From sequence record SRR22947727_3270: 34,265 nucleotides of DNA; one strand, given 5' to 3'. Shown one piece after another: positions 13,481-33,977 of this stretch; the stretch's first letter is position 1, and each line of letters starts with the position of its first letter. A model generated the notes under the pieces. That model worked only from the letters and a program-made list of their open reading frames with translations. It was not told the origin of the DNA and did no database searches. The position numbers and the translations under genes are program-made.

Positions 13481-13582
13481 CGCCTGAGGGAATAGCGGCC
13501 TAAAGACCAGAGGGCAGAAAATAGCCGCGCGCTGAAAAAAACGGGGGGCCGGCATGAAGTAACGGCCCTAGTTTTGCTGGAC

Positions 13583-13678: not shown

Positions 13679-13781
13679 CCAAACACAGTGAACAGGGTTT
13701 TGGGATCAACCAGCGCGAACTTCTCCAGATCAGCAACCCCAGTCAACAGAATCAGCGAGGGTGTCCGCTCTCATCAGGGCC

Positions 13782-13801
13782 TTTATACTTCCTATACTTA
13801 G
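13782..13801. repeat. 20-bp junction motif, copy 2 (TTTATACTTCCTATACTTAG)
   Basis: 19/20 identical to 10524-10543; sits at the left edge of the AT-rich segment. Confidence 0.8.
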
Positions 13802-13921
13802 GCCAGATTCAACTCATCTAACAACGGCTTCATAACACCTCCACTACGGTCAACACGCTACCGCATGCGCACAAACAAAATAACGTCATAGAAACACACT
13901 CAAATTTATCAACGCCCGCAC

Positions 13922-15082: not shown

Positions 15083-15088
15083 ACCAAC

Positions 15089-15916
15089 CTAAACCAGAGT
15101 TCTCGTCCAACGCTCTGGCAGCACGAGGTTTGTACTACCCATTGTTACCGTAGATTGCCGATACTCGAGTACAGGAAGTTCTGCCAACGCGTTGATGATA
15201 TGGTTTTGGGTTGGATTTTTTTCCCAACTCGATTCATGCCACTCGATATGCCCCTGCCCTAACATGACCTTGGTATAAATATTCTCAGAGGGATAGGTAG
15301 CCAACTCGTTGACCACCGGTTCGCCAAACCCACCCAGTGCAGGCATATATCGCCAAGCCATGGGGTGATCTTTATCCTTTTGTTGCTGCTGTTGTGCCTG
15401 CGCTTCAACCAGCGGCACTTCAGTTAAATCACCGATGGATAAATCAATAAACTTGTGGCCAAAATGACTCGCATGACAACTCCACCCCGCTGGGCTAATC
15501 GCATGCTCTGGAATATCCGCATAGACCTTCGGAATTCCTTGGATTTCTCGCCCTGATAAAATAGGGTCGGTTAGGTTTTCCCAAATCACTAAAGCATAAC
15601 TACCTTGTAGCTGTTCCTTTTCACCTTGATAAGATACCGCCGCGTTAACCCCCAGCATGTTATAGCCATGGCCCGCTAGCCAATCCACTTGCTTGTTACA
15701 GGCATAATAAACCGTCACCAACGCTTCTTCAGCTAACTCAAAGGGCGCTGGCAGATAACGTTTTAATCGCTCAGGGTCGGTCAAATAAGTCACAGCCATA
15801 ACCGTTACATCGCGGTACCAACCACTGGTTTTTTCGCCAATGTAACGCGGGCCAAAATGGGCGGGCATAACATAGCTTTGGCGGGGATCGAGTGTAAACA
15901 TAATGAAAGGTACCAT
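15089..15916 (-). CDS. Acetoacetate decarboxylase-like superfamily protein
   Basis: YLTDPERL.RYLPAPF and GREIQGIPK (Schiff-base Lys motif). The start may be at 15901. Confidence 0.85.
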   Translation of the reverse strand: MVPFIMFTLDPRQSYVMPAHFGPRYIGEKTSGWYRDVTVMAVTYLTDPERLKRYLPAPFELAEEALVTVYYACNKQVDWLAGHGYNMLGVNAAVSYQGEKEQLQGSYALVIWENLTDPILSGREIQGIPKVYADIPEHAISPAGWSCHASHFGHKFIDLSIGDLTEVPLVEAQAQQQQQKDKDHPMAWRYMPALGGFGEPVVNELATYPSENIYTKVMLGQGHIEWHESSWEKNPTQNHIINALAELPVLEYRQSTVTMGSTNLVLPERWTRTLV

Positions 15917-16109
15917 CTAGAAAGCATGCTGTAGATATTGCTTCCGTGAGTGTTGCCGTCAATTCATCCGCATTGTTTCTCTGAACGAATGAGTTGTTAG
16001 CGAGTGTGCATAATCCATTGAAAAAACAATCTTCCTGATTCTCACTGAGCACCAAGAATAAACATAGATAACACTGAATAGGCCATCTAACAAACCCTTG
16101 CTAGCCATC

Positions 16110-16143
16110 AATGTGCCCAACACCTCCATATGCTGGGCACATT
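16110..16143. terminator. Stem-loop downstream of the TonB receptor stump
   Basis: AATGTGCCCA (16110-16119) pairs with TGGGCACATT (16134-16143). There is no clear U-tract, so it may be a stabilising or attenuating stem. Confidence 0.55.
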
Positions 16144-16181
16144 CATTAAGCGACCGTGCTAGTCAGCTATTTAACTGTAGA

Positions 16182-16272
16182 CTAAAAGTTATAAACCACT
16201 TTAACACCGTACATTCTTGGATCTCGCAACGATGACGATGCCAAGCCCGATACCGAACTGGGTCGCCCACGA
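16182..16272 (-). pseudogene. 3' stump of a TonB-dependent outer membrane receptor
   Basis: Translates RGRPSSVSGLASSSLRDPRMYGVKVVYNF*. PRxYGVxxxYxF with terminal Phe is the TBDR C-terminal beta-signal. Confidence 0.8.
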
Positions 16273-16860
16273 TCACAGATCATTCGCATCAGCCCTGGTA
16301 AAACTGCGCAACTGATCCATCGCGATCGCTGGGCGTGGGGTAAACACCTTGCGCACGTCGAACCGCAGTTCAATACCATCTGGGCGATTACCGATTTCAC
16401 CTCTGAGAACGGTGCGACTCAGGTTGTACCGGGCAGCACCCAATGGCCTGACGATGCGAACATTAGCCCAGATCAGATCGCGACGGCAAAAATGAAAGCC
16501 GGCTCTGTACTCCTTTACTCAGGATCAGTTTTTCACGGTGGTGGCGAAAACCGAAGCGAACATGATCGTATTGGCATCAATATTACCTATACATTAGGTT
16601 GGCTGCGGCAGGAGGAAAACCAATACCTGACGTGCCCTCCCGAGATCGCTAAGGATCTGGAGAGGCCGCTTCAAGAGTTAATCGGTTACTCAATGGGCCA
16701 ATATGCCTTGGGTTACTTCACTCCCCCGGGTCAACCGGGTGAACACCCTGAAATTGTGCCCCCGCAATATGCGCTTGGACATCCTATTGAGGGCAGCATG
16801 CTGGGCACCTCGGATGAATTGGATGCGCTGCAGGCAGAAATCGGTACACCGTCAGACTGA
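16273..16860 (+). pseudogene. 5'-truncated phytanoyl-CoA dioxygenase (PhyH) family Fe(II)/2OG oxygenase
   Basis: The frame of ORF 16492 extends upstream as SQIIRISPGKTAQLIHRD...NTIWAITDFTSENGATQVVPGS...GSVFHGGGEN...LGWLRQEEN (HxD...H triad). There is no credible start, and in-frame stops occur near 16183-16194. Confidence 0.85.
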
Positions 16861-16919
16861 GTGCCGTCGTCTACCGCTGATCGGTTACACTCGAGAATTC
16901 TCCTGACACTGAGCATCTC

Positions 16920-17102
16920 ATGGACTGTGCGGTCAGCACCTACTCCTTTTTCGAAAGGCTTATAAAATGCGGTTTGTATGGCTTCAGCTCACTGCAAGTG
17001 CTGATTCTGATGGGCCTTGTATTAGTGGGGGCAACCTACGCCCTTTGGGAACATCGCAAGCAGTTGCGCACAGAGCGCGACGAAAAAACGGATCGCTTTT
17101 GA
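16920..17102 (+). CDS. Possible small single-pass membrane protein
   Basis: One hydrophobic segment (LQVLILMGLVLVGATYALW) followed by a charged tail; start uncertain. Confidence 0.4.
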   Translation: MDCAVSTYSFFERLIKCGLYGFSSLQVLILMGLVLVGATYALWEHRKQLRTERDEKTDRF

Positions 17103-17208
17103 GCTATTTCAGCTGGCCTATGAAAGGGGGCGATGAAATCTACAAGGGCCTGATCACAGCAAGTCGCATCATACTGTCGTCTACCCCTCTCCCGCGCCAA
17201 AACACAAG

Positions 17209-17231
17209 AAAAAATCCGGCCTGAGCCGGAT
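17209..17231 (-). terminator. Rho-independent terminator for the minus-strand genes
   Basis: ATCCGGC-ctga-GCCGGAT hairpin with an A-run on its left, which is a U-tract on the minus strand. Confidence 0.8.
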
Positions 17232-17253
17232 ATCGCTGATCACTTTCTCGCGG

Positions 17254-17661
17254 TTACTGCATGGTCAATACATGCGCGGTGAGGTCTTCTGCAGAACCGC
17301 AGGCCGCTGCCATCACAGCAAACTGAGCCTGCCATTCCTCATCGGCAGCCTGCCATGCCGTCGCGTTATTCATTGACGCGACAGAGCCATGCACATCCAC
17401 AGAAACGACCGCCCCGTCTTCATGAAGGGCCGGCGCCGCAGAATAGGGGTAAGGCGAGGCGTCGCGCTCATAGGCGATCAGCGCTTTTAAAAGCGACAGA
17501 CCCGCGTCGGCATCTGCGCACGGCCAGTGATAGACGATCATCATTTGACCGGGCTGAGCGGCGAGCATCATGTGATCACCCTTTTCGTGATGACCGGCTG
17601 TGGCAGTGACGGATATCCACAAGGTGACCATCAGTAGTGTCGCGGTTTTAATCAATCTCAT
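17254..17661 (-). CDS. Exported hypothetical protein (135 aa) with N-terminal GHHE motif
   Basis: Signal peptide ending ATA-GHHEKGDH; GGAGAG RBS; two Cys. Confidence 0.8.
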   Translation of the reverse strand: MRLIKTATLLMVTLWISVTATAGHHEKGDHMMLAAQPGQMMIVYHWPCADADAGLSLLKALIAYERDASPYPYSAAPALHEDGAVVSVDVHGSVASMNNATAWQAADEEWQAQFAVMAAACGSAEDLTAHVLTMQ

Positions 17662-17715
17662 AACATCTCTCCATTATTCAGTTTTAACAATGCATCGTTG
17701 GCCGCAAAACCCGAA

Positions 17716-18315
17716 TTACCGCGGGTCCTGATACTCGTAATAGCCGTCGGTTGGGATCATCACGTGTGCCCCAGGGGTTCCAGGGAACATGACATAGGGC
17801 GCGCCGCTGTTGAAATCGTCCGTCATACCATCGAGCGAAGAGGGGTCCTTGGGTAACAACATGAGGTGAGGGCCCGACTCGATCCACTGGGAGGGATCCT
17901 TGGCATCGGCCAGATCCAGCACACCAGCGGTCGTATTATCTTCACCAACATCACCATGGAGCATCCACATAAACGCATCACGTTCAAGCTGAGGATCTCT
18001 GCCTGCCATGAAGTCACTCATCCATTTCAACCCCACGTCGTCGGTACAGACGGGCATTGCTTGATGCGCACTGCTCCAGCCCCCTTCAGGGGCTGGCCGC
18101 GGATTCCCCACCATACAGGTCCAGCCATTGGACCCCTCACGCAATACCGTACCATCCAGTCCCAGCACCGTAGCATTCGTGCCCAGTGGTGCTGGCGCGG
18201 CGGAAGAATAGGCCCAGATCTGCCATTCGGCGCCATCGTGTGGTCCGGCCGGCTCACCGGCCTGCGCCGTCATCGTAAGGCCCACCAAAAACGCCCCGAT
18301 AATAAATTCTCTCAT
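17716..18315 (-). CDS. Exported hypothetical protein (199 aa)
   Basis: Signal peptide (AQA); motifs SAAP, LREGSNGWTC, WMLHGD.GEDN, WIESGPHLML and PYVM.PGTP.AHVMIP. Confidence 0.85.
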   Translation of the reverse strand: MREFIIGAFLVGLTMTAQAGEPAGPHDGAEWQIWAYSSAAPAPLGTNATVLGLDGTVLREGSNGWTCMVGNPRPAPEGGWSSAHQAMPVCTDDVGLKWMSDFMAGRDPQLERDAFMWMLHGDVGEDNTTAGVLDLADAKDPSQWIESGPHLMLLPKDPSSLDGMTDDFNSGAPYVMFPGTPGAHVMIPTDGYYEYQDPR

Positions 18316-18446
18316 CCTATTACGCTCCCGTTAGTCATCCTCTTGAGTCCGCATTGCACTCAGTTGCGCACTCACCTGTTGGCAACCCATGCAAAGCAAC
18401 GATTAGCCTAGGGTAAAACAAGTGTCGTCACAAACGTCCACTCCCA

Positions 18447-19451
18447 CTACAGACTCAGGCAAATCTTGCCGAAGTGCTGCTGTGACTCCTGATAGCGAAA
18501 GGCCTCTGCCAGCTCAGGTAATGCAAAGGTTTTATCAATGACCGGCTGCAGGTTATTGGCCTCGACAGCGGCAATCATGTTGATATGGTCCGCCCGACTG
18601 CCGACGGTAATACCACTCAAACGACCATTTTTCCTCATTAACTCGCCAGTGGGCATCTCACCCGCCCAACCGGTGAGTACACCGATGAGACTGATGCATC
18701 CATCGATCGCTAAGGCGTTAATGGATTGTGGCAAGTTGCCTGGGCCCCCTACTTCGACGACCAAATCCACTCCACAGCCGCCCGTAAGTTCAAACGCCTG
18801 TTCACCCCAGTTGGCCTGCTCTCGGTAATTGATCAGGTGTTCGGCACCCAACGCCTTCAGCCGCTCAAGCTTGGCATCGGATGACGACGTGGCAATGACA
18901 CGGCAACCCATCATCCGGGCAAATTGCAGTGCCACCACCGACACACCGCCACTTCCTTGCACTAACACCCAATCACCGGGCTTGAGATCTGTCTCGACCA
19001 CGAGTGCTCGCCACGCGGTTAATCCCGCGCAGGTGAGGGTTGCCGCTGCCGCAAAATCGAGATGCGCGGGCATTCGACTAAAGGCAGAAGCCGGCATGGT
19101 AACGCTCTGCGCCGCGAAGCCATCAACATGATCGCCCGGAACACCCAACAAATTAGGCAAGTTAGGACGACCCGAAGGCCAATGAGGAAAAAAGTAACTC
19201 AGCACGCGATCGCCCACCACATAATCGGAGACGCCGTCTCCGACCGCCGTGACGACACCCGCCCCATCGGACATCGGAATACGACCATCCGCTGCGGGAA
19301 TCATTCCCGTCACCACCGCATAATCATGAAAATTCAACGAGCTTGCCTTCACCTCAACTTGCACTTCGCCGAGACCAGGCGCTCGTGGCGTCATCTCATT
19401 GAGCTGGAGTTGGTCAAGCCCTCCCGGGGCAGAAAGCTGCATTGCTTGCAT
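18447..19451 (-). CDS. MDR-family NAD(P)-dependent oxidoreductase (quinone reductase/ADH-like)
   Basis: ASSLNFHD, IPMSDGAGVV, TLTCAGLTAWRAL, QGSGGVS and HFGKI. Confidence 0.92.
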   Translation of the reverse strand: MQAMQLSAPGGLDQLQLNEMTPRAPGLGEVQVEVKASSLNFHDYAVVTGMIPAADGRIPMSDGAGVVTAVGDGVSDYVVGDRVLSYFFPHWPSGRPNLPNLLGVPGDHVDGFAAQSVTMPASAFSRMPAHLDFAAAATLTCAGLTAWRALVVETDLKPGDWVLVQGSGGVSVVALQFARMMGCRVIATSSSDAKLERLKALGAEHLINYREQANWGEQAFELTGGCGVDLVVEVGGPGNLPQSINALAIDGCISLIGVLTGWAGEMPTGELMRKNGRLSGITVGSRADHINMIAAVEANNLQPVIDKTFALPELAEAFRYQESQQHFGKICLSL

Positions 19452-19690
19452 AAGCGCTCCTATTGCGTCTTATCAGTCAAAAATAAGCATCAAGCCTTTA
19501 CGTCCGCATGATGCACATCGCTGCAACAGGTGATTACCGCAATCGATACGCGCCTCACTGATTCAGCGGCCAAGGCTCGTGTGTCTGCTAAGCTACCACC
19601 AAATACACACATCGACCAAGACATGACCGACTATTAGGCCATGTCGCAACGCGCCCATTTGCTGGTGCCCTCTAGATGAGAACAATCGTC

Positions 19691-20611
19691 ATGACCAAAC
19701 TCGAACAACTGCGCACCATGACCACCGTCGTTGCCGATACGGGAGATCTTGATGCGATCGCTAAGCTCAAGCCGACCGATGCCACCACTAATCCTTCGCT
19801 ACTGTTAAAGGCCGCTGCGTTGACACAGTTCAGTGACCAAATCGGAACACTGCAAGCATCTTCTCTGCCGATCGATGATCGTGTCGATCAATTTGCGGTA
19901 GCGGTGGGTTCAGAGATCAACCGACTGATACCGGGCGTGATCAGTACGGAGGTAGACGCGCGACTCTCCTTCGACACAGACGCCACCATCGCCAAGGCCG
20001 AGAAACTGATCGAACTCTATGCCGACGCGGGCATTAGCGCCGATCGGGTGTTGATCAAGGTCGCTGCGACGTGGGAGGGCATCCGAGCCGCTGAAACGCT
20101 GGAGCAACGGGGTATTCACTGTAACGCCACGCTCATTTTCAGTTTCGAGCAGGCCTGCGCCTGCGCAGATGCGGGCGTCTTTCTCATCTCACCGTTCGTG
20201 GGGCGCATTACCGATTGGTACACCGCTCATACCGACCTAGTCATTGCCGATCCCCTACAGGACCCTGGCGTACAATCGGTCACGCGCATCTACACTCATT
20301 TTAAAACACACCAGTACGACACCGTCGTCATGGGTGCCAGCTTCCGCAATACGGGTCAGATAGAGGCCTTAGCGGGCTGTGATCGGCTGACGATCAGTCC
20401 TAACCTACTCAGCGAGCTAGCGGCTGACAACGGTGCACTGCCGCGCCAGTTACAGGACACCCGCGCACACTTGCCACGATCAGAGCGCCTCAGTCACAAC
20501 GCGTTTCTATTCGCCAACAGCCAAGACCCTATGGCATGTGACAAATTAAGCGATGGCATTCGACGCTTTGTCGCCGATCAAGAACAACTTGAGGCATTGC
20601 TCGCGGGTTAG
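19691..20611 (+). CDS. tal: Transaldolase
   Basis: [48 protein letters not shown] and VMGASFRN. Confidence 0.97.
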
Positions 20612-20651: not shown

Positions 20652-22028
20652 TCAACCCAGAATCGCGGGTAATTCCTTTGCGAGTGCCATTCGTTGTTTG
20701 ACCGCTTGGCCGGTGAGCGCGAAACCCAGCAGGTCTCCTTCGCTAGAGCGAAAGACCGCTTTGATGTCGGGCGCGTCGCCCTCAAAAAGCCACTCCCCCT
20801 CGGCATCGCGCGCCGGCGGCGACACCACAATCGGGCACGCCGGCGTTTTAATGGCGACAGGCATAGCCGGATAACTCACCTCGGTGGGCTCTCCAGCCAG
20901 CGTGGCCGCGAGTGCTCGCGCTGCCGCCATCAGCGGTGCAACGTAAACCAATACGTGTCCCGCCACCTCAGCGCAATCACCCATGGCATAAACATGTGGC
21001 GCACTCGTCTGTAACAAACGATCGGTCACGATACCCCGCTGGGTCTGAATGCCGGCCTCAGTAGCCAATGCCGTGCGGGGCCGCACACCAACCGCACAGA
21101 GCACCGCATCCGCCTCGATCGTCTCTCCATTGTTGAGCGATACGACGTACCCTGTCTCGCTACGGTTCACCTCGGTTGCCAGTGGTCCAAAATGAAATGT
21201 GGCGCCCTTCTCCTCTAATGCGGCCTGCACCGCCCGACCCGATGGCTCGGGTAACAGGGTCGGCAAACACCAACCCATTGGGTCAACTGCTTCCACTGAA
21301 AATCCGCCATTAAGCAGGTCATTAGCAAATTCACAGCCAATCAAACCAGCGCCAATGATGGCAATCTTTTTAGCACCGCGAGCCTCGAGTAAATCCTGAA
21401 AACGACGATAATCATCGAGGTCGTTGACACCCAGCACTTCGTCCGCCGCATCTCCCCCGATGGGCGGACGAATTAATTCAGCGCCCAACGCCAATACGAG
21501 CTCCGAGTACGACAGTGATTCACCCTTATCGAGCTGAATGGTTTGAGCATCAGTATCGATTTGGGTGATCTGCGTTCGCGTGCGAACCGTCACAGACAAT
21601 TGCTCAGCAAGCTCCAAAGCGCTTTGCGTCGCAAGCTTATCCGCCGAAAGATCCTTCGTGTAGCCGGTGGAGATCATCGGCTTGGAATAGCCCTCACCAC
21701 CGTCAGAAGTGAGCACCGTGATTGCGATCGCGTCATCTTTACGCCTTAGCTCGCGCACTAAACCGTAGCCCGCCAGCCCCGAACCAATCACGACAACGTG
21801 ACGGCTCTGAGCTTCACGCCCGCTATTGGCAGTGGCATCGGTGCTTTCTGATGCGCCATCTTCGGAGCCGGGAATCAGCTCAAAATCATCTTTACCCACA
21901 CCACAATCAGGACAGCTCCAGTCCTCTGGTACGTCTTGCCATTTTGTGCCGGGGGCAATGCCGTCATCCGGCCACCCCTCTTTCTCATCGTAAATTAGTC
22001 CGCAGACGATGCATTCCCATCGAGCCAT
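20652..22028 (-). CDS. Rubredoxin / rubredoxin-NAD(+) reductase fusion protein
   Basis: N-terminal CIVCG.IYD..GWP..GI.PGT.W..VP.DW.CPDCG rubredoxin, then an acidic/Ser linker, then [36 protein letters not shown] and YPAMPV.IKTP (RubB/AlkT-like). Confidence 0.93.
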
Positions 22029-22147: not shown

Positions 22148-24250
<2,103 letters not shown>

Positions 24251-24440: not shown

Positions 24441-24483
24441 TGTATAGCTTGTTAAACACAAATACAGTAAAACTATTAGCACA
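24441..24483. promoter_or_regulatory. Tandem PpsR/CrtJ-type operator
   Basis: TGT-N12-ACA at 24441-24458, a 7-bp gap, then AGT-N12-ACA at 24466-24483, ending 22 bp before the ATG at 24506. Confidence 0.75.
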
Positions 24484-24505
24484 TTAGCGGTATTACCTCA
24501 GGACA

Positions 24506-25699
24506 ATGGACAGAACAGCATTACTGACATTGGGACGCTTTCCTAAGGCACTCACACTCGCCAGAGGACTGCATCGTCAAGGGGTTCGCGTTATTGTGGC
24601 GGATCCGCTCAAACGTCACATCTGCTCGATCAGCCGCGCCGTCGCCAAAAGTTATCAGGTCACCGCGCCCAACGACGATCTCCTTGCGTGGCAAACGGAG
24701 TTGCTCGCGATTATCGAAACTGAGCACGTCACCGACGTCATTCCGGTTTCAGAGGAAATTTGCCACGTCGGTAATTTGGCGGCCCTGCTGCCCGAAAAGG
24801 TCCGCTACGTCGGCCCTTCAGCGCAGTGGCTAGATCATTGGCATGACAAACTCGATTTTGTAGATCATGCGATCAACCAAGGCGTCACAGCACCCTCTGT
24901 CTACGTGGCAACCGATCCCGATACCCGCGCATTGATCAGGCAAACCGACTGTGTCCTCAAGCCGCGCAGAGGTTGCTCGGGGACTGAGGTCTCGTTTATT
25001 CGCCGCGGCAGCGCACTCCCCCCCGCGTCCCCGGACATGCTATTACAACGCAAAGTCGAGGGCAGTCACTTGTGTACCCTGAGCTGGGTGAAGGACGGCG
25101 TCGCAGTAGCGACCGCAAGCTATCGCGGCACTACCTATAGCGGCACGGTGGCGGTTGGCTTTCAATGCGCGGCCACGCCTTTTTCCGTCCGGCAGTGGAT
25201 CGATCAATTCCTCGCCAATACCAGCACAACCGGATTCATTAGCTTCGACTTTATTCTTGATCGAGCGGGTATTCCTTGGGGTATCGAGTGCAACCCCAGG
25301 TTGAGTAGCGGTATTCACTTCATGGATGAAGGCTGGATTGGTGGCGCAGTGCTGGATCTGCCCCAAGGCCCTGGATCCATCAGTGCCGCGGGCAAGCGCG
25401 CTCAGTGGGGCTACTCGACCCTAACGGAGGCTTATAAATATCTTTTTCGGCTTCGCCTCCCCGAGCTCAGCCGTTGCCTCAGAGACTTTTTTCTGTCGCG
25501 TGATGTGGTGTGGTCTTGGCGGGACCCTCTTCCCTTTTTATTGATGACACCCCTGAGCTGGGAGCTTATCTGGATCTCGCTGAAAGAGCGGATCTCACTG
25601 GGAGACGCCAGCCAGCGTGATATTGCTTGGCATTGGTTTAAAACAACTGACGAGGTAGAGCACAGTGTTATACCGAGCGGTGATCAACATGAAGCATAA
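24506..25699 (+). CDS. ATP-grasp domain protein of unknown function
   Basis: VIPVSEE, HDKLDF, VLKP..GCSG, LLQRKVEG, GFISFDFI and IECNPR; AGGA RBS. Confidence 0.88.
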   Translation: MDRTALLTLGRFPKALTLARGLHRQGVRVIVADPLKRHICSISRAVAKSYQVTAPNDDLLAWQTELLAIIETEHVTDVIPVSEEICHVGNLAALLPEKVRYVGPSAQWLDHWHDKLDFVDHAINQGVTAPSVYVATDPDTRALIRQTDCVLKPRRGCSGTEVSFIRRGSALPPASPDMLLQRKVEGSHLCTLSWVKDGVAVATASYRGTTYSGTVAVGFQCAATPFSVRQWIDQFLANTSTTGFISFDFILDRAGIPWGIECNPRLSSGIHFMDEGWIGGAVLDLPQGPGSISAAGKRAQWGYSTLTEAYKYLFRLRLPELSRCLRDFFLSRDVVWSWRDPLPFLLMTPLSWELIWISLKERISLGDASQRDIAWHWFKTTDEVEHSVIPSGDQHEA

Positions 25700-27056
25700 C
25701 TTGGCTTGCCGGTCGCGTCGTCATTCGCGCTGCTGGCCGAACCGTCTGGCCCGACGCCAAAGTCCAGTCAAAATGACGCACCAGCTCGGCCAAGATCAGG
25801 ACACTCTCCGTCTGGGCAAATCCAGCACCCACACAGGTATGGGGTCCCTGTCCAAACGGAATGTAGGCTCCCTGCACCAGCTCTTTTTCATGCTCGGGCA
25901 AAAACCGCTCCGGACAAAACGCATGGGGGTCAGTCCACCATTTCGCATGTCGGTGCAGCGTCCAAGGCGCCACCATCACCAGGGCCCCCTTGCGCAATCG
26001 ACGACCTCCAATCGTGGTCTCTCGCGTGGCAACCCGGGGCATGAAGGTGATCGGTGGATACAACCGCAATGTCTCTTTAAAAAACGCCTTCGTCAGGGGC
26101 AATTGCCGGGTATGTTCGAAGGTCATTCGTCCGTCACCCACAACCTGCTCGATTTCGTCACGCAATCGCTCACGCCACTGCGGTTGATCGGCGAGCACGT
26201 AAAAAGCCCAAGTCAGCACGCTGGCAGTGGTTTCATGGCCCGCCAAAAAAAACACACCCAATTGATCAATCAATTCCTCGCGCGTAAACGGCTCACCAGT
26301 ATCACGGTCATGAGCGGCGATCACACTACTGGCGATATCGTCAAAGCCGCTGGGATCGTCAAGGTGGGAATCGACCAACACACCAAGATGATGTCGAATA
26401 CGCTCGCAGGCACCGAGCACTTCGGGAGGCTGCGGGAATTCACTCCAAGCCGGTTTGAAAATCAGGCGCAGCACGTCGACTTGAACCGCGGATTTTTCAA
26501 ACAGGGTAAAATCTTCAAAGACATCAACCGCCACCCCCGACTGCAGTGGCGTCGAGAACACAGTTCGACAAATAATGTCGGCTGTCAGGTGACTCATGGC
26601 CAAGTCCAGCGAAAAGACCTCACCCGAGTCCGCCTTGTCGCGCAGCGACAACAAGTGCTCATCGACTGCGGCTTGCATCGCCGTGAAGGCGTGACTGATG
26701 CGCATATGAGAAAAAGCGGGGTCGATCATTGCACGCTGTCGCTTCCAGCGCTCTCCGTCAGTGACAAAAATACTGTCGCCAATCAAGTGCTCCAGCGCGC
26801 TCACCATCAAATCACTTTTCGGAAATACGCCTTGTGCATCGCGCATAATCTCGCGGACAGTATCGGGGTCATTGAACAACACGGTGGAACGTCTCGAGTA
26901 ACCAAGATTGCCCACATCAAAACGGTAGGCAGCAGCGGGCAGCAACTCAAGCAAATTGCCATCACCCTTCCACAGTACACGCGCCAGCGCCACAACAGAC
27001 CAGAGCGACAGAGGTTTGGGGGGTATATACAGATTATCCGTTGCCATCACACGCAT
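25668..27056 (-). CDS. Cytochrome P450
   Basis: I-helix AGHETT, ExxR (ETLRLYPP), PERF and heme motif FGQGPHTCVG. Start at 27056 or 27047. Confidence 0.96.
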   Translation of the reverse strand: MRVMATDNLYIPPKPLSLWSVVALARVLWKGDGNLLELLPAAAYRFDVGNLGYSRRSTVLFNDPDTVREIMRDAQGVFPKSDLMVSALEHLIGDSIFVTDGERWKRQRAMIDPAFSHMRISHAFTAMQAAVDEHLLSLRDKADSGEVFSLDLAMSHLTADIICRTVFSTPLQSGVAVDVFEDFTLFEKSAVQVDVLRLIFKPAWSEFPQPPEVLGACERIRHHLGVLVDSHLDDPSGFDDIASSVIAAHDRDTGEPFTREELIDQLGVFFLAGHETTASVLTWAFYVLADQPQWRERLRDEIEQVVGDGRMTFEHTRQLPLTKAFFKETLRLYPPITFMPRVATRETTIGGRRLRKGALVMVAPWTLHRHAKWWTDPHAFCPERFLPEHEKELVQGAYIPFGQGPHTCVGAGFAQTESVLILAELVRHFDWTLASGQTVRPAARMTTRPASQVMLHVDHRSV

Positions 27057-27091
27057 CCCATTTTCTGCACACAGTATGGAGCGGGGGTGTA

Positions 27092-27838
27092 ATGGTGTCG
27101 ACCCACACCCTGTTTGAATGGCTTGTTGGATTACACATCCTAACCGGTGCCATTGGGCTGGTTGTCATTTGGATACCCATTGCAGGTCGCAAAGGGGGAC
27201 AGCTACACCGCCGAGCGGGCAGATTATTTGTTCAGACAATGATTATGACGGGGTTTACCGCGGTCGCTATTAGCCTGACGACCCTCTCAGACCCAATCGG
27301 CACACATCCACATCTTGCCGATCATCCTGTCTTTGCCAATCCGCGAGCCATCACCAATATTTTTGGCTGGATGATGCTCTATCTCGCCACGTTAACGGTG
27401 AACCTTGCATGGCAAGGTTGGTTGAGTCTGCGCAACAAGCAGAATCATCTGGCCAATCGTGCCTGGCACAATCTACTCTCACAAGCACTATTAACCGTTG
27501 CATCTGCCAATTGTTTTGTCCGTGGCGCCACCGAGCCTGAACCCATGATGATGGGTATTGCGATGGTCGGTTTTGCGACGGTTGCGACCAACTTATGGTT
27601 TATTTATAAGCCTTATCCGTTGCCCACTGATCGCATTAAAGAGCATATTAAGTGCTTGGTCGGCGCTGGCATCTCTGTCTACACCGCGTTCTTTGCCTTT
27701 GGTGCAGTGCGTTTATTACCGGAACTCGCGTTGCAACCCGGACTTTGGGCGGTGCCATTAATCGTCGGCTTAGCGTTAATTATTTATCATCAGAGAACCG
27801 TCACACGACCTGCTTCTCGCAAATGGAAAGTGGTGTGA
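27092..27838 (+). CDS. Multi-pass membrane protein, DUF2306-like
   Basis: About 7 hydrophobic segments with LHI.TG, KGG..HRR.G and EHI....GAGI..YTAF motifs. Its TGA overlaps the GTG start of crtD. Confidence 0.8.
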   Translation: MVSTHTLFEWLVGLHILTGAIGLVVIWIPIAGRKGGQLHRRAGRLFVQTMIMTGFTAVAISLTTLSDPIGTHPHLADHPVFANPRAITNIFGWMMLYLATLTVNLAWQGWLSLRNKQNHLANRAWHNLLSQALLTVASANCFVRGATEPEPMMMGIAMVGFATVATNLWFIYKPYPLPTDRIKEHIKCLVGAGISVYTAFFAFGAVRLLPELALQPGLWAVPLIVGLALIIYHQRTVTRPASRKWKVV

Positions 27839-29322
27839 CCCAGCGCCATGTGATCGTCATTGGGGCGGGTGCGGGGGGATTGTCAGCTAGCATCGACCTA
27901 GCGCGAGCCGGCATGCGCGTCACCCTGCTCGAGCGCGCTGCCGCTCCCGGTGGGAAAATGCATACTCGAGAAGTCGATGACCTCAGCGTTGATGGCGGCC
28001 CCACGGTCCTCACCATGCGGTCGATTTTTGAACAGCTCTTCGAAGATGCCGGCACCTCCCTTAGTGATTACATCACGCTACTCGACAGTCCTGTCATTGC
28101 GCGTCACGCCTGGAGCGATGGCGGTCTGCTGGACTTGTTCCCAGACCGCGAACGATCCCGCCAGTCCATCGAACAGTTTGCGGGCAGCGATAACGCAGCC
28201 GGCTTCGATCGCTTCTATTCGCAGAGTGAAAAGATCCACAGGGCGCTGTCCTCCACTTTCATGGCGGCCAGTAAGCCCAATCCGCTGACACTGGTTGGCA
28301 GAGTGTTACGTCAGCATCCCCTCAGCTCGTTACTCGCAGCACGGCCATCAACCGATCTATGGCGCGCACTGGGTGGCTTTTTTTCAGACGAACGACTGCA
28401 ACAATTATTTGCGCGTTACGCGACCTACGTGGGGTCTTCGCCACTCAGCACACCCGCCACCTTAATGCTGATTGCGCACGTCGAGTTAGACGGCGTTTGG
28501 TTAGTCGATGGCGGCATGCACCGGCTTGCAGCGGCAATGGCTAAACTGGGACAGCAACTGGGCATAGACCTGCACCTCAACACCCACGTGAGTGACATCT
28601 TGGTAAAAAATGGAAAGGCAGTTGGCGTGCGCTTAGACGATGGCACTTCCCTGACAGCCGACGCGGTGGTCTTTAACGGCGACACGCAAGCCATCGCCAC
28701 CGGCCAACTCGGGGAATCTGCCCGCTCTGCCGTGACACTGCGGCCAAGCCGTCAGCGCGCGCTCTCTGCCTTTACTTGGTGTATCAAGGGTCAAGCATCT
28801 GGCTTCGACCTCGACCACCATAATGTCTTTTTCGAGTCGAATTATCCCAGTGAATTCAATACTATTTTTGAAAAACATCACGTTCCCACGAAACCGACCG
28901 TTTATGTGTGCGCACAAGATCGTGGCCCTACTGGAAAACGAAATAACGCGGAACGGTTACTGATGTTGGTTAATGCGCCTGCCAATGGGGATAACAAGAC
29001 GTGGTCGACTGATGAGGTCAGCCACATCCGCGATAATGCCCTCGCTGTGCTAAACCGCTGTGGATTAACGCTACGCTTTCACGACGACGACTGCGTTGCC
29101 ACGACCCCAACCGATTGGCACAGTCGCTTTCCCGGGAGTGGCGGCTCGCTCTATGGCGGCGCGTCACACGGCCTTTGGTCTAGCTTTACCCGGTCCGGTG
29201 CTCGCAGTCGTCTAAAAGGACTCTATCTATCGGGCGGCAGCGTGCATCCTGGCCCTGGCGTGCCAATGGCCACGCTGTCAGGCAGACTGGCGGCGCGCAC
29301 CCTGCTCAGCGACATCATCTGA
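27835..29322 (+). CDS. crtD: 1-hydroxycarotenoid 3,4-desaturase
   Basis: VIVIGAGAGGL, GGKM, DGGPTVLTMR, LARHAW-like IARHAW, RYATYVGSSP, GGSLYG and GGSVHPGPGVPMATLSGRLAA. GTG at 27835 is the likely start rather than 27652. Confidence 0.9.
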   Translation: MTQRHVIVIGAGAGGLSASIDLARAGMRVTLLERAAAPGGKMHTREVDDLSVDGGPTVLTMRSIFEQLFEDAGTSLSDYITLLDSPVIARHAWSDGGLLDLFPDRERSRQSIEQFAGSDNAAGFDRFYSQSEKIHRALSSTFMAASKPNPLTLVGRVLRQHPLSSLLAARPSTDLWRALGGFFSDERLQQLFARYATYVGSSPLSTPATLMLIAHVELDGVWLVDGGMHRLAAAMAKLGQQLGIDLHLNTHVSDILVKNGKAVGVRLDDGTSLTADAVVFNGDTQAIATGQLGESARSAVTLRPSRQRALSAFTWCIKGQASGFDLDHHNVFFESNYPSEFNTIFEKHHVPTKPTVYVCAQDRGPTGKRNNAERLLMLVNAPANGDNKTWSTDEVSHIRDNALAVLNRCGLTLRFHDDDCVATTPTDWHSRFPGSGGSLYGGASHGLWSSFTRSGARSRLKGLYLSGGSVHPGPGVPMATLSGRLAARTLLSDII

Positions 29323-30204
29323 GGGCGTCGCTGCTTGGACCGATAGGGCCCAAAAATCATCCAGTGCTGAAATCGTGTCGAGAGGTAATTCCCAATGGGG
29401 CAAACCCATGCTGGGAACAAGGCGTTTGATGGTCCATTGACCGTTTGCATCGTTCAATTCGGGGACACGTTCAAAGCCAATATTAGGATCGTCGTCGTAG
29501 AGCACCAAGCACGGCAGTGTGAGCCGGCTATACAAACGCGACATCGCCTGCTCTGTGAACAGATTAAAAGTCAGAAACTTGAGGGGGACGCGATGCGCGC
29601 CGGGTTGCCGAGCCGTCTCCCACGCATACTGCACTAGATATTCAGGCGTTTGACCAACAAACGCTTTATTCAAGAACCAGCGGATACTCGCTTTGGTGGT
29701 CAAGGCACGAAATAACGGCTGCCCTACCCAAGGTGAATTCAGCAGGCGGTCAAGTCGAGACCCGTTCGGCAGCGAGGGGGGACTCGCCGTTCCCATCCCG
29801 GTAGGCGAAATCAATGTCAGACTGCGTATCCGAGTGCCTTGCTCCAAAATGGCGCGGGCCACAAACTCCCCGGTCAACGACAGCGCGACCACGTCAGGGG
29901 GACTTTTAAAGTCTTTCAGCCACTCCGCGATCCACCGCGCATACTGGACGCTGGAGTACAATACCGCTGGACGATCAGAGAGGCCAAAACCGGGTAAATC
30001 GGGCGCCATCACCGGTCGCTTATCGCGGTAGTGCTCAAATAAAGGGCGAATTTCCATCGCACTCGGGGCCGCGTTAATACTGTGCAACAGCACCAGTGGA
30101 GTGCCTTCTGAGACCTCTCCTTGGTACCCGCGCAGCGTCACGTTTCCATCGAGCGAAACAGCGAACTGTTCCGCATCCAAAGCAGGCGTCAGGGGCTTGG
30201 CCAT
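29278..30204 (-). CDS. Alpha/beta-hydrolase fold protein
   Basis: PLVLLHSINAA, APDLPGFGLSDRP, nucleophile elbow VALSL and C-terminal LPHWE. Confidence 0.85.
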   Translation of the reverse strand: MAKPLTPALDAEQFAVSLDGNVTLRGYQGEVSEGTPLVLLHSINAAPSAMEIRPLFEHYRDKRPVMAPDLPGFGLSDRPAVLYSSVQYARWIAEWLKDFKSPPDVVALSLTGEFVARAILEQGTRIRSLTLISPTGMGTASPPSLPNGSRLDRLLNSPWVGQPLFRALTTKASIRWFLNKAFVGQTPEYLVQYAWETARQPGAHRVPLKFLTFNLFTEQAMSRLYSRLTLPCLVLYDDDPNIGFERVPELNDANGQWTIKRLVPSMGLPHWELPLDTISALDDFWALSVQAATPSDDVAEQGARRQSA

Positions 30205-30212
30205 GATATAAC

Positions 30213-30255
30213 CATCAATGACAATTGACAGTCTAATAGTATAAATTGCGGGACA
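30213..30255. promoter_or_regulatory. Degenerate PpsR-type site pair in the hydrolase/bchI divergent promoter
   Basis: AGT-N12-ACA at 30238-30255 and a weaker CAT-N12-ACA at 30213-30230, with the same 7-bp spacing as the other pairs. Confidence 0.45.
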
Positions 30256-30335
30256 CTCGCCCGGATAGCTTCTTTTTCACATTTCTGGCATCGGGGCTTA
30301 ACATAGCGCTGACGCCGTAGTCACTGAGGACACAC

Positions 30336-31367
30336 ATGAGCACCGCGTATCCATTTACCGCTATCGTCGGTCAAGATGATATGAAACGGGCACTGACGAT
30401 TGCCGCCGTTGACCCCGGTATCGGCGGGGTTTTGGTTCTCGGCGAGCGGGGCACGGGCAAGTCCACCACCATTCGTGCTCTCGCGGCCCTGCTGCCCAAA
30501 ATCGATGTTGTCAAAAGCTGCCCCTATCAATGCGATCCGCATCACGCTCTGCCGGGGCTCTGTGACTTATGCGGCAAATCCTCGGCTGCCCCTGCAAAGA
30601 CAGCCATGACGATACCTGTTGTCGATTTGCCCTTGGGCTCGACAGAAGATCGCGTGGTCGGCGCACTCGATATTGAGCGCGCACTCGTAAACGGTGAAAA
30701 AGCGTTTCAGCCGGGGCTACTGGCGCAGGCTAACCGAGGCTTTCTCTATGTTGACGAAGTGAACTTACTCGAGGATCACATTGTCGACGCGCTGCTCGAT
30801 GTCGCCGCATCGGGAGAAAATGTGGTTGAGCGTGAAGGGCTCAGCATACGACACCCCGCAAAATTTGTTTTAGTGGGCAGCGGCAACCCCGAGGAAGGTG
30901 AACTGCGACCCCAACTCCAAGACCGTTTTGGTTTATCCGTTGATGTCCGAACCCCTTCGGATGTCCCGACTCGAGTCGACATTATTCGCGCGAGAGAAGC
31001 GTTCGATAAAGATCGCAGTGCTTTTCGCAAGCGATGGGCGCGCAAAGAGAGCACCCTACGACGACGCATACAGCGGGCTCGGGAAGCGCTCGATAGCATC
31101 GACACGCCCGCCAATTTGCTAGAGACCGCAGCCAAGTTATGTCTTGCACTGGGCACTGACGGATTGCGAGGAGAGTTAACATTAGTGCGTAGCGCACGCG
31201 CCTTGGCCGCACTCAACAGCGACCCGATAGCCACACTGGAGCACCTCAAAGCCATCGCTCCTTCTGTGCTCCGACATCGGCTACGGCGTGATCCTCTTGA
31301 TGAATCCAGCGCCGATATTCGAGTAGAACGTGTGATTTCGCAGCTTTTCAACGACTGTGACGACTGA
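30336..31367 (+). CDS. bchI: Magnesium chelatase ATPase subunit I
   Basis: YPFTAIVGQ, GERGTGKST, VVDLPLG.TEDRVVGALD, LYVDEVNLLEDH, GNPEEGELRPQL.DRFG and DGLRGEL. Confidence 0.97.
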   Translation: MSTAYPFTAIVGQDDMKRALTIAAVDPGIGGVLVLGERGTGKSTTIRALAALLPKIDVVKSCPYQCDPHHALPGLCDLCGKSSAAPAKTAMTIPVVDLPLGSTEDRVVGALDIERALVNGEKAFQPGLLAQANRGFLYVDEVNLLEDHIVDALLDVAASGENVVEREGLSIRHPAKFVLVGSGNPEEGELRPQLQDRFGLSVDVRTPSDVPTRVDIIRAREAFDKDRSAFRKRWARKESTLRRRIQRAREALDSIDTPANLLETAAKLCLALGTDGLRGELTLVRSARALAALNSDPIATLEHLKAIAPSVLRHRLRRDPLDESSADIRVERVISQLFNDCDD

Positions 31368-33102
31368 CACACCGTCTCTTTGGGCGGATGCAGAATGGGC
31401 TGCCGCACTGGTAAACCTGATCGGAGATCGTGTCGGCGGCGTGCATCTGCGCGCCTCTCCAGGGCCGGTCAGGGATTATTGGTTAGACCGAGTCGAGAGT
31501 TTCTCCGAGCAATCACACCTGAGAAAAATCCCCGCGAATATTCCAGAGGCTCGGTTACTGGGCGGCATTGATCTCGCTGCCACGCTGCAGCAAGGCAAGC
31601 CGATCGCCGAGACCGGCATGCTGGGAGAGTGTCATGAGCGCATTGTCATCGCCGCCATGGCCGAGCGTCTTCCCAGAAATACGGTTCATCACCTTTGCGT
31701 TGCATTAGATGATGGCCAGTTGTCGATCGCTCGCGACGGCATCGATACGCTGACCGCCGCACGCATTACATTGATTGCAGCAGACGAAGGAACAGAAGAA
31801 GAATTCATCCATGGTGCACTGTCTGATCGCTTGGGGATCACGGTCAATCTGCAACCTATCGGCATCCATGGCGTAGACGATGATATTTTTGATCGGGGTC
31901 AGATTGAACGCGCTCGGGCATGCTTAGACGAGGTCATGCTGACAGAGGAACATCGCATCGCCATCGCGACCTTGAGCCTCACCTTGGGCATTGACTCTCC
32001 ACGGGCTGCACTGGCCGCCGTCCAAGTCGCCCGTGGCGCTGCAGCGCTCGCTGGACGTCGCGCGGTAGACGACAGTGACATTGCCTGCGCGCTTCGCCTA
32101 TGCCTGATTCCCAAAGCAGCACAGCTTCCCGATATGGCTGAACCTGCACCCGAACCAGAACCGCAACCTGAACCTGAAGTGGATCAACCAGAAGAACCGG
32201 AACCACCCCAAACGACAGAGCAGATGCCGTCAGACGAGGATCGCTTGCTTGAGGCCGCACTCGCGCAACTGCCGGAAGGGTTATTACAGCAGCTACAAAC
32301 ACGCGCGGCCAAAGTGCGCCAGAGCAGTGCCGGTTCGTCGGGAGCCCAGCATCGGCACCAGCAACGCGGGCGGCCAACTGGCGTCTTTCGTGGTGATCAT
32401 CGCCGCGGCGGGCGGGTCAATATTCTTGCGACACTCCGTGCCGCTGCGCCCTGGCAACCCCTGCGTCGGCGCGAACGCGGCGACGCGCTGCGAAAGCTGG
32501 AAATACGCCGAGAAGATATTCATCTAACGCGCTATCAACAACGCCGCGAATCGCTGACATTGTTCGTGGTTGACGCCTCAGGTTCTGCAGCAATGCAACG
32601 CCTCGCCGAAGCAAAAGGCGCCGTAGAATTACTGTTAGCAGATTGCTACGTGCGCAGAGATCAAGTGGCATTGATTGCTTTTCGTGATGAAACAGCCGAA
32701 CTGCTTCTGGCACCGACTCGGTCGCTGGTGAGGGCCAAGAAAGCGCTAGCGGCACTACCCGGTGGCGGTGCCACACCGATGGCTGCCGCACTAAATTTAA
32801 CGCGGGATATTGTCGAACGCGCCAGCAAACAAGGTACGACCACACAGTACATTTTGCTCACCGACGGCGCTGCCAATGTGGCGCTTGATGGCACGCGAAA
32901 TCGCGAGGCAGGCACCCGAGATGCATTAACGGCAGCACAGCGACTCGCGGGGCAGCCCGTCAGCGGTCTGGTGATCGACACCGCACAACGTCCGCAATCT
33001 AGAGCCAGAGATTTAGCCGATACATTGCGGGGTACCTACATCGCACTGCCAAAGGCAGACGCCCACACGCTGAACCGGACGATCCGAGCTGTTTCGGGAT
33101 GA
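31357..33102 (+). CDS. bchD: Magnesium chelatase subunit D
   Basis: RLLGGIDL.ATL degenerate AAA domain, Pro/Glu-rich linker, ATLRAAAPWQ and vWA MIDAS VDASGS...LLTDG.AN. Confidence 0.95.
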   Translation: MTTDTPSLWADAEWAAALVNLIGDRVGGVHLRASPGPVRDYWLDRVESFSEQSHLRKIPANIPEARLLGGIDLAATLQQGKPIAETGMLGECHERIVIAAMAERLPRNTVHHLCVALDDGQLSIARDGIDTLTAARITLIAADEGTEEEFIHGALSDRLGITVNLQPIGIHGVDDDIFDRGQIERARACLDEVMLTEEHRIAIATLSLTLGIDSPRAALAAVQVARGAAALAGRRAVDDSDIACALRLCLIPKAAQLPDMAEPAPEPEPQPEPEVDQPEEPEPPQTTEQMPSDEDRLLEAALAQLPEGLLQQLQTRAAKVRQSSAGSSGAQHRHQQRGRPTGVFRGDHRRGGRVNILATLRAAAPWQPLRRRERGDALRKLEIRREDIHLTRYQQRRESLTLFVVDASGSAAMQRLAEAKGAVELLLADCYVRRDQVALIAFRDETAELLLAPTRSLVRAKKALAALPGGGATPMAAALNLTRDIVERASKQGTTTQYILLTDGAANVALDGTRNREAGTRDALTAAQRLAGQPVSGLVIDTAQRPQSRARDLADTLRGTYIALPKADAHTLNRTIRAVSG

Positions 33103-33977
33103 CCTCCGCGACACATTGGCAGGCTGTCGCTGACGTTTGGCCATTAGCCGATAGCAGTCGCTTCGTTACACTTGATGGCGCCGATTATCATGTGCAGGTC
33201 TCTGGCCGTGGTCCTGATGTATTGTTGCTGCACGGCGCCGGTGCATCGAGCCATTCGTTTGCCGGTATCACCCCGCTGCTCACGCCGCACTTTCGTGTCA
33301 TCTCACCCGATCTGCCGGGCCAAGGGTTTTCCTCACTACTGCCCCCTGAGCGAGTGGGACTGGTGCCATTTAGTGACTACCTTAAGGCCCTGTTACAGAA
33401 GCTCGATGCCACACCCCAATGGATTATTGGACACTCAGCGGGTGCTGCACTCGCCACACAGTTCGCGCTCAACGTAGGCGAATCAGTTCAAGGTATTCTT
33501 TGCATTAATCCAGCGTTTAATCCCTTTGGCTCCATGGCCGCCCCGTTTTTTAGCTTGGCCGCGAAATGGCTGTCTCGCAGTCAATGGCTGCCGCGTGCGC
33601 TCGCCTCGCCGAGTCTCCGCTGGCGTGCCACAGGGTCCATGCTCGCCGACACTGGATCATCAATCGACCCCATCATGTCCCGCTGTTACGACACCTTACT
33701 CAGTGACCCCGATCATATTGCGGGGACGCTGCGGATGATGGCCGGCTGGGACTTACCGCCATTACTCGGTCGTCTTAGCGAGCTTCAACAACCTATCTGG
33801 CTGGCCGCCTGCGAGGGAGACCGCACCATCCCACCGAGCCGCAGTACCTCGGCAGCGCGGTACTTGACTCACTGTCGGACTCTGCTCATTCCTGAACTAG
33901 GGCACCTTGGTCACGAGGAGTCACCCGCGACTTTCGCCAATCTGTTGCAGGCTTTAATCGTTAGCACGCAATCCTAG
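33099..33977 (+). CDS. bchO: BchO alpha/beta hydrolase (Mg-chelatase accessory)
   Basis: W...WP....SRFV, HVQ..G.GP.VLLLHGAGASSHS, GHSAG and LGHL.HEE; overlaps the end of bchD. Confidence 0.9.
   Translation: MTSATHWQAVADVWPLADSSRFVTLDGADYHVQVSGRGPDVLLLHGAGASSHSFAGITPLLTPHFRVISPDLPGQGFSSLLPPERVGLVPFSDYLKALLQKLDATPQWIIGHSAGAALATQFALNVGESVQGILCINPAFNPFGSMAAPFFSLAAKWLSRSQWLPRALASPSLRWRATGSMLADTGSSIDPIMSRCYDTLLSDPDHIAGTLRMMAGWDLPPLLGRLSELQQPIWLAACEGDRTIPPSRSTSAARYLTHCRTLLIPELGHLGHEESPATFANLLQALIVSTQS

Follow-up and report, generated by a model that had tools for sequence, protein, structure and literature searches.

The Halieaceae (OM60/NOR5) are abundant coastal aerobic phototrophs. Spirilloxanthin-series pigments are described for these phototrophs in the accessible part of one report (PMC3679898), and P450 genes are generally abundant in these oligotrophs (PMC4391266). 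The gene crtD, encoding the 1-hydroxycarotenoid 3,4-desaturase, is known from the purple-bacterial crt operons of the spirilloxanthin and spheroidene pathways. According to the available portion of one source, crt genes of other clusters sit at the bchIDO edge, and in the Halieaceae crtD had so far been noted only as lying outside the photosynthesis gene cluster of C. litoralis KT71 (PMC3176799). Here we analyze a 34,265-nucleotide stretch of Luminiphilus DNA (Halieaceae; sequence record SRR22947727_3270), called the window at its full length. Between positions 24,441 and 30,255 its crtD is surrounded by genes for an ATP-grasp protein, a cytochrome P450, a histidine-rich membrane protein and an alpha/beta-hydrolase-fold protein. 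The nearest relative of the window is an uncultured Luminiphilus sp. (L001), 100% identical over the membrane protein.

Each neighbour of crtD can be set beside a described protein. The P450 resembles CYP97A3 (LUT5, PDB 6j94), a plant carotenoid beta-ring hydroxylase. The membrane protein may be compared with the fungal PraC, the first DUF2306 protein with a function, which the accessible part of its description reports as required in vivo for the terminal epoxidation of pramanicin (PMC12895699). The ATP-grasp protein has the fold of PylC and the ATP-grasp carboxylate-amine ligases, and the hydrolase-fold protein shares with BchO its fold family and its place at the cluster edge. None of these likenesses, discussed below, makes the region a copy of a known system. 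What is new here is a fixed pair of the P450 and a membrane protein with three invariant histidines, to which crtD is attached, a variant of ordinary P450-centred oxidative units that contains an uncharacterised membrane-protein family. In the reading that we favour, with a probability of about 0.6, the region brings together three units, each with its own history, and is not one pathway: the P450/membrane-gene pair, crtD in the operon of that pair, and the hydrolase-fold gene at the bchI edge. The features are as follows.

24441..24458, no strand: TGT-N12-ACA palindrome about 65 bp upstream of the ATP-grasp start, possible operator
24506-25699, plus strand: ATP-grasp ligase-fold protein, 397 aa (PF02655, 32.2 bits against a cut-off of 23.2)
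25668-27056, minus strand: cytochrome P450, 462 aa (PF00067, E 1.4e-77), start ATG at 27056 or 27047
27057..27091, no strand: spacer of 35 bp between the divergent P450 and membrane-gene starts
27092-27838, plus strand: membrane protein, 248 aa, 7 predicted helices, His-rich (AlphaFold2 model and family scans)
27823 or 27835 to 29322, plus strand: crtD, 1-hydroxycarotenoid 3,4-desaturase (NF045637, 639.9 bits against 580)
29278-30204, minus strand: alpha/beta-hydrolase-fold protein, 308 aa (PF12697, 54 bits against 26.3)
30336-31367, plus strand: bchI (TIGR02030, 487 bits against 467)
31357-33102, plus strand: bchD (NF009943, 643 bits against 571)
33099-33977, plus strand: bchO (TIGR03056, 233.7 bits against 172.55)

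All curated NCBIfam cut-offs are passed by crtD, bchI, bchD and bchO, the last three being the start of the photosynthesis gene cluster proper. A reading made from the letters alone (the sequence-only reading) had picked out the four genes around crtD that are not canonical bch, crt or puf genes, and their identities and coordinates are confirmed.

The divergent P450/membrane-gene pair

Related loci were collected with the membrane protein, aligned with 15 homologs, as the query. One genome per species was scanned, giving 312 matching stretches. A relative is encoded in 307 of them, and of these the best 80, all from Halieaceae, were compared with the window proteins by tblastn. For each gene only the loci whose contig reaches far enough were counted. 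A tree of the concatenated P450 and membrane protein was built with FastTree for 70 loci and midpoint-rooted, the 10 loci with partial P450 matches having been dropped. A plasmid collection yielded one relative of the membrane protein, from Hymenobacter, 25% identical and without P450 or crt context.

The P450 and the membrane gene are divergent and their start codons (27056 and 27092) are separated by about 35 bp, a feature that the sequence-only reading did not mention. Divergently transcribed, the P450 and the membrane gene adjoin each other in 69 of the 70 testable loci; in the sole miss, L019, the P450 match is split, not absent. The two matches lie 36-105 bp apart in 74/75 loci, among sequences down to 64% identity, a constancy that is hard to explain other than by selection on the pair. 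Moreover, both proteins change slowly: identity between Luminiphilus and Congregibacter is about 68-70% for the P450 and the membrane protein, against about 45-55% for the ATP-grasp protein, CrtD, the hydrolase-fold protein and BchD. The P450 and the membrane protein are thus a family-wide, slowly evolving pair with a tiny shared control region. Since the spacer between the divergent starts measures 35 bp, both promoters must lie partly within the neighbouring coding region. A promoter and terminator scan gave a signal no higher than in shuffles, and a TGT-N12-ACA site occurs in the P450/membrane-gene spacer of one locus in 70, the window spacer having none.

In the exceptional L019, a Luminiphilus metagenome-assembled genome, the P450 match (8418-9182) spans 55% of the query and stops 819 bp short of the membrane gene, the result of either a broken gene or an assembly fault.

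An ATP-grasp gene usually accompanies the pair (46/64 testable loci). It is missing from one well-supported phototrophic subclade (18 loci), in which its place beside the P450 is taken by a FA_hydroxylase-family gene and a 131-aa open reading frame (ORF) of no family (L046, 7308-8598); the former has a weak OlsE-like match of 48 bits against a cut-off of 475. Farther out, beyond the ATP-grasp gene, every clade has different genes (OYE reductase, HD-GYP, MFS, methyltransferase or efflux genes), and the flanks outside ATP-grasp and crtD likewise differ in every clade.

The pair is also found without crtD. Ten of 75 loci lack crtD and keep the P450 and the membrane gene, at 70-73% and 69-72% identity, respectively, together with the ATP-grasp gene (one contig, L054, is too short to show the latter). 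Within 10 kb of these ten loci no fragment of crtD, the hydrolase-fold gene, bchI, bchD or bchO was detected at E <= 1e-3. Downstream they carry RND efflux and ppk genes, in L042 an RND efflux pair followed by ppk. The nine included in the tree group together (support 0.84); this clade is sister to a locus bearing crtD and bchI and nested among phototrophic lineages, and the crtD-less genomes are presumably non-phototrophic. One clade has thus lost crtD from the locus and kept the pair, a clean natural experiment. The pair outlives crtD and so must have a function independent of the spirilloxanthin pathway, although it could still act on carotenoids where these are present. A further 12 loci have crtD and no bchIDO within 10 kb. 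Hence P450, membrane gene and ATP-grasp gene are not confined to bch-adjacent loci, and the link of these three to photosynthesis clusters that the sequence-only reading had supposed largely fails: they stand together in the 10 of 75 loci without crtD or bch genes and in the 12 without bchIDO.

crtD, the hydrolase-fold gene and the bchIDO edge

The match of the crtD product to NF045637 covers model positions 1-485 of 485 at a score above the equivalog cut-off, as for crtD of purple-bacterial crt operons. Its N-terminus reads VIVIGAGAGGL, with NAD_binding_8 and Amino_oxidase matches, and carries the G-x-G-x-x-G of the Rossmann motif that binds flavin adenine dinucleotide (FAD). By family assignment it is a genuine spirilloxanthin-pathway desaturase. 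Its position differs from that in crt operons in three respects: crtD is the second cistron behind a membrane gene that is not a crt gene, it has no adjoining crtC or crtF in the window, and it keeps its address behind the membrane gene even in genera with crtD outside the cluster.

The membrane gene ends with TGA at 27836-27838, and crtD starts either with ATG at 27823, overlapping by 16 bp, or with GTG at 27835, overlapping by 4 bp. Of 75 loci, 65 have crtD immediately after the membrane gene, and these are all (65/65) of the testable crtD-bearing loci. A candidate crtD start overlaps the membrane-gene stop by 1-8 nt in 59/66 loci, the start nearest the stop having been chosen, which favours overlaps, and gaps of 23-97 nt are seen in the other seven. 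The membrane gene and crtD appear to be a real, conserved two-gene operon-like unit and would be co-transcribed.

In the 12 loci where crtD follows the membrane gene without the hydrolase-fold gene or bchIDO, the arrangement is found in two clades, a Congregibacter-like one of 10 loci and a Chromatocurvus-like one, each with support 1.0; a third member of the latter (L076) is too short to test. The crtD genes of Congregibacter brevis (L060, 650.7 bits) and Chromatocurvus (L072, 662 bits) both pass NF045637 behind the membrane gene. What follows crtD differs between the two, being a gene on the opposite strand for a 2,692-aa DUF11-repeat protein in C. brevis (12271-20349) and genes for Hsp20, a flavodoxin-like protein and SUF proteins in Chromatocurvus. 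The lack of adjacent bchIDO in the Congregibacter-like loci agrees with the crtD outside the cluster of KT71, as given in the available portion of that report (PMC3176799). The place of crtD in the family is fixed: it is the second cistron after the gene of an uncharacterised three-histidine membrane protein that is paired with a P450.

On the other side of crtD, the hydrolase-fold gene is divergent from bchI in all of the 50 bchI-bearing loci, with spacers of 122-331 bp, and the only two cases without bchI are both at contig ends. It lies within 300 bp of the 3' end of crtD in 48/63 loci, is absent in 12, and in three is 0.5-2.9 kb away, yet beside bchI; in L065 and L071, 1.1-2.9 kb are inserted after crtD and the hydrolase-fold gene is still with bchI. 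Since it stays with bchI in 50/50 loci, even where it is split from crtD, the gene belongs to the bchIDO edge and is co-inherited with the adjacent bch genes. The gene-neighbourhood comparison that the sequence-only reading had itself suggested, in which orthologs mostly unlinked to photosynthesis clusters would speak against its proposal, gave largely that outcome for three of the four genes, the hydrolase-fold gene being the one that stays with bchI. Its idea of a single tailoring pathway around crtD survives in part: the four-gene module dissolves, with the hydrolase-fold gene following bchI, and the link of the membrane gene to crtD is conserved.

The catalytic competence of the hydrolase-fold protein is uncertain. 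It is 28% identical to BchO over 133 N-terminal residues but is not matched by the BchO model TIGR03056 at E <= 1e-5, reaches the threshold of no specific NCBIfam family and has no sequence match in the PDB. With the positions of the triad assigned by alignment to BchO, not by structure, a serine is conserved in 11/11 sequences, within A-L-S-L-T rather than G-x-S-x-G, which we take to be the nucleophile elbow of Ser-Asp-His alpha/beta hydrolases, and the candidate catalytic histidine is glutamine in 3/11. Its gene differs from bchO in its opposite strand, its atypical nucleophile motif and a putative histidine that is not universal, and the protein may not be a hydrolase in all lineages.

The spacer between this gene and bchI was also inspected for sites. 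In the subclade without ATP-grasp (L032-L077) it has a conserved palindrome, TGTTTAAATAAA(A/G)(T/C)GACA, of the PpsR/CrtJ-site form. A TGT-N12-ACA site is present in this spacer in 20/50 loci, 19 of them with the motif of the subclade and L058 with another, and the corresponding window spacer (30205-30335, 131 bp) contains none.

The 3' ends of the region overlap in the window at ATP-grasp/P450 (25668-25699, 32 bp) and at crtD/hydrolase (29278-29322, 45 bp). The sequence-only reading had given these two lengths, and the overlap of the membrane-gene stop with the crtD start, exactly. The physical lock of four genes that it built on them is not conserved. Across loci the ATP-grasp/P450 relation ranges from -1525 to +85 bp, overlapping in 32/46, and that of crtD and the hydrolase-fold gene from -2888 to +48 bp, overlapping in 35/51; in the window lineage both overlaps are due to additional C-terminal tails, of low conservation, on the ATP-grasp and hydrolase-fold proteins. 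Convergent genes are not co-transcribed. The overlaps are compaction and not evidence of coupling, and they caution that overlapping gene ends do not prove a common pathway.

Such overlaps would also be expected if the whole neighbourhood were a matter of descent, the photosynthesis cluster having ended up, in the ancestor of the family, next to a P450 and a membrane gene unrelated to it, and genome streamlining having squeezed the spacers, with no functional ties. The lineage-specific tails agree with that view, as do the flanks that vary by clade and the fact that compact, overlapping genes are common in the window, for example at bchI/bchD and bchD/bchO. It has to account, however, for the P450/membrane pairing with its short spacer in 74/75 loci, and we consider it improbable as an account of the region.

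The three-unit reading allows the history of the locus to be sketched. The simplest ancestral order would be ATP-grasp, P450, membrane gene, crtD, hydrolase-fold gene and bchIDO; loci adjacent to bchIDO fall on either side of the midpoint root. The cluster would then have separated twice, leaving crtD behind, and one clean loss would have removed crtD. In terms of the three units: (i) the P450 and the seven-helix, three-histidine protein, diverging from a spacer of about 35-45 bp across the Halieaceae, with an ATP-grasp gene usually converging on the P450, are kept with or without photosynthesis genes nearby; (ii) crtD, as second cistron, would depend for its synthesis on the membrane-gene transcript, would have stayed when the rest of the cluster moved off and would have been cleanly removed in one lineage; and (iii) the hydrolase-fold gene, divergent from bchI, is the outermost gene of the bchIDO edge.

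The P450, the membrane protein and the ATP-grasp protein

The P450 is soluble-type, with no N-terminal membrane anchor and with a conserved N-terminus, M..YIPPKP. In 23 sequences F401, G402, C408 and G410, A272-G273-H274-E275-T276, and E328 and R331 are invariant; these are the positions of the cysteine-ligand loop F-x-x-G-x-x-x-C-x-G, of the I-helix motif A-G-x-E-T and of E-x-x-R. As a single sequence its best solved relative is CYP97A3, to which it aligns over nearly the full length (E 2.1e-46, against 8e-40 for CYP3A4). With the family profile CYP97A3 reaches 214.6 bits and the next match about 178, CYP3A4 scoring about 176-178 and CYP97C1 159. Since CYP97C1 falls below CYP3A4, the CYP97 likeness is not family-specific, and it should be regarded as a lead, not as a family assignment. 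Two further differences from CYP97A3 are that spirilloxanthin-series carotenoids lack a beta-ring and that loci without crtD also keep the P450; the lead of CYP97A3 over CYP3A4 is modest.

For the membrane protein an AlphaFold2 model was obtained with a predicted local distance difference test (pLDDT) of 85.1 and a predicted template-modelling score (pTM) of 0.84, showing seven long helices. Foldseek found no match to this model in the PDB at E <= 1e-3, the best having E 0.098 and template-modelling (TM) scores of 0.2-0.4, and the sequence profile matched no PDB sequence. A profile search of 1.84 billion representatives, clustered at 50% identity, gave 1,164 clusters at E <= 1e-3, 412 at 1e-10 and 44 at 1e-30. 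In 63 full-length members, 22-47% identical to the window protein, H15, H39, G43, H185 and G226 are invariant, and the three histidines lie in transmembrane helices. Searches for close homologs of the membrane protein and of the ATP-grasp protein returned only Halieaceae-type hypothetical or 'ATP-grasp domain' names. Two longer, fused forms of the membrane protein were found, neither with a Pfam domain, so that no Rosetta-stone hint emerged. A family of about 1,160 clusters with neither an assigned function nor a solved relative thus becomes testable in cultivable strains.

No Pfam family is reached at threshold by the membrane protein, DUF2306 (PF10067) scoring 21.7 bits against a cut-off of 31.6. 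Among its close relatives 7/16 match DUF2306 at E <= 0.1 and 0/16 at the cut-off, and among distant full-length relatives 25/87 match at E <= 0.01 and 0/87 at the cut-off, the best with 29.9 bits. These recurrent weak matches, the window protein's included, always span only the first ~60 profile positions. In the ESM Atlas only unnamed clusters were found, plus a lead of 0.84 to a cluster in which 20% of the members carry DUF2306. By these comparisons the membrane protein is a member of an uncharacterised family at most distantly related to DUF2306. Judged by the description available in part, PraC (PMC12895699) is likewise a multi-helix membrane protein without a soluble domain, and both proteins occur among oxidative enzymes acting on hydrophobic molecules; unlike PraC, with 393 aa and five predicted helices, the window protein has 248 aa and seven helices and stays below the Pfam cut-off. 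DUF2306 is further listed, in the part of a preprint that was accessible, among hypothetical, computationally predicted haem-binding families (bioRxiv 10.64898/2025.12.11.692455).

The invariant histidines and the double linkage of the membrane gene invite the idea of a shared redox partner, a three-histidine protein that would bind haem or a metal and pass electrons to or from the P450 in all members and, in phototrophs, also the FAD-dependent CrtD. The membrane gene alone is linked to both neighbours, to the P450 in 69/70 loci and to crtD by the overlap in 59/66, and the haem-binding prediction for DUF2306, by that one computational screen, would fit. On the other hand, the protein shows no likeness to known membrane cytochromes (best Foldseek E 0.098), its relation to DUF2306 is sub-threshold, and haem or metal binding and contact with P450 or CrtD are purely hypothetical. 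Such a partnership seems to us doubtful.

The AlphaFold2 model of the ATP-grasp protein has a pLDDT of 85.7. Foldseek gave at least 500 matches at E <= 1e-3, those listed being all ATP-grasp enzymes, with PylC at the top (E 8.7e-17, TM 0.53-0.58) and biotin carboxylase and PurK close behind. The single sequence matched nothing in the PDB, and its profile only 2pn1 (E 7.5e-7) and PylC (E 0.012); the NF005315 (PRK06849) equivalog model aligned over its full length with 210.8 bits, below the cut-off of 406. The protein shares with PylC and the carboxylate-amine ligases the ATP-grasp fold and conserved Lys and E-x-N positions, presumably the ATP-grasp motif. It differs from PylC in that the TM score is only 0.5-0.6, biotin carboxylase and PurK score almost equally, and an extra conserved C-terminal region of about 100 aa is present. 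The model suggests a generic carboxylate-activating ligase fold.

In 19/46 loci, crtD-less loci included, a TGT-N12-ACA site is found at -46 to -177 from the ATP-grasp start; in the latter it takes forms such as TGTTTGAC..TTCACA at -51 to -64. The window holds nine such sites against 6.25 expected, that is, no enrichment. The occurrence in crtD-less loci led to the rejection of the site as a PpsR/CrtJ-type, photosynthesis-specific operator. Small ORFs upstream of the ATP-grasp gene, considered as peptide precursors, offered nothing convincing.

The neighbourhood of crtD raises the possibility of carotenoid tailoring, in which the P450 and the membrane protein, perhaps together with the ATP-grasp protein, would modify spirilloxanthin-series carotenoids, for instance by oxygenation in aerobes without crtA; this would explain the link to crtD. 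The conserved stop/start overlap (59/66), the persistence of crtD with the membrane gene in two separate clades without adjacent bchIDO and the likeness to CYP97A3 are in its favour, and so are two reports as far as they were accessible, on the absence of crtA from the NOR5 clade (PMC3176799) and on the requirement for a DUF2306 protein in an epoxidation elsewhere (PMC12895699). Against it, the trio is retained, still highly similar (P450 70-73% and membrane protein 69-72% identical), in the clade without crtD at the locus, the ATP-grasp gene is missing from a phototrophic subclade (18/64), and CYP97C1, the other solved carotenoid P450, scores below CYP3A4. Moreover, the pigments described in the accessible part of PMC3679898 are plain spirilloxanthin-series carotenoids, and the literature searched, comprising few subscription journals and no supplements, assigns no P450 to these clusters and links no P450, ATP-grasp or DUF2306-like gene to crtD or to the cluster. 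Tailoring of this kind is in our view unlikely.

In the three-unit reading that we prefer, the pair would oxidise a membrane-resident hydrophobic compound, either an isoprenoid or a lipid. The P450 would perform the oxygen chemistry, the membrane protein could be a metal- or haem-binding partner or a second oxidase, and, in loci that have it, the ATP-grasp enzyme might join a carboxylate product to an amine. Several points weigh against this reading. The conserved tight stop/start overlap is as in genes of one process, so that crtD merely riding along may understate the link, and the nearest solved relative of the P450 is a carotenoid hydroxylase. The link to DUF2306 is sub-threshold, and haem or metal binding by the membrane protein is suggested purely by its three histidines. 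The crtD-less condition describes the locus and does not extend to photosynthesis or carotenoid genes elsewhere in the ten genomes, and the behaviour of the pair is described within Halieaceae, for the best 80 of 307 loci, and not beyond the family. A more far-reaching and improbable proposal would make the three-histidine protein the founder of a new family of membrane-embedded haem or metal oxidoreductases, acting with a CYP97-like P450 and CrtD on acyclic carotenoids in phototrophic Halieaceae without crtA and on another isoprenoid in their non-phototrophic relatives. If true, it would reveal a so far undescribed oxygen-dependent branch of the spirilloxanthin pathway.

Other features of the window

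Two oxidoreductase genes precede the region, both taken from the ORF list and family scans.

20652-22028, minus strand: rubredoxin-fused NorW-like NAD(P)H reductase
22148-24235, minus strand: OYE/Fe-S flavoenzyme, 695 aa, 2,4-dienoyl-CoA-reductase-like

These genes are kept only in the close relatives of the window (L003-L031). They are a conceivable electron supply for the P450, though not co-conserved with it.

A scan of the window with Rfam gave no match. Between 14001 and 16000 the G+C content falls to 0.44-0.48, against about 0.55 elsewhere, in a stretch that covers acetoacetate-decarboxylase-family and 3-hydroxyacyl-CoA dehydrogenase genes, and the 1.8 kb from 15917 to 17715 contain short ORFs only. 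At 11621-13480 the minus strand encodes a RimK-type ATP-grasp ligase with a fused TrkA-C domain, and its gene faces one for a putative ATP-dependent zinc protease (PF05618). Farther upstream, at 5457-9262, a gene for a CitMHS-type transporter with two TrkA-C domains is followed by the APS kinase and ATP sulfurylase genes, a sulfate-activation set.

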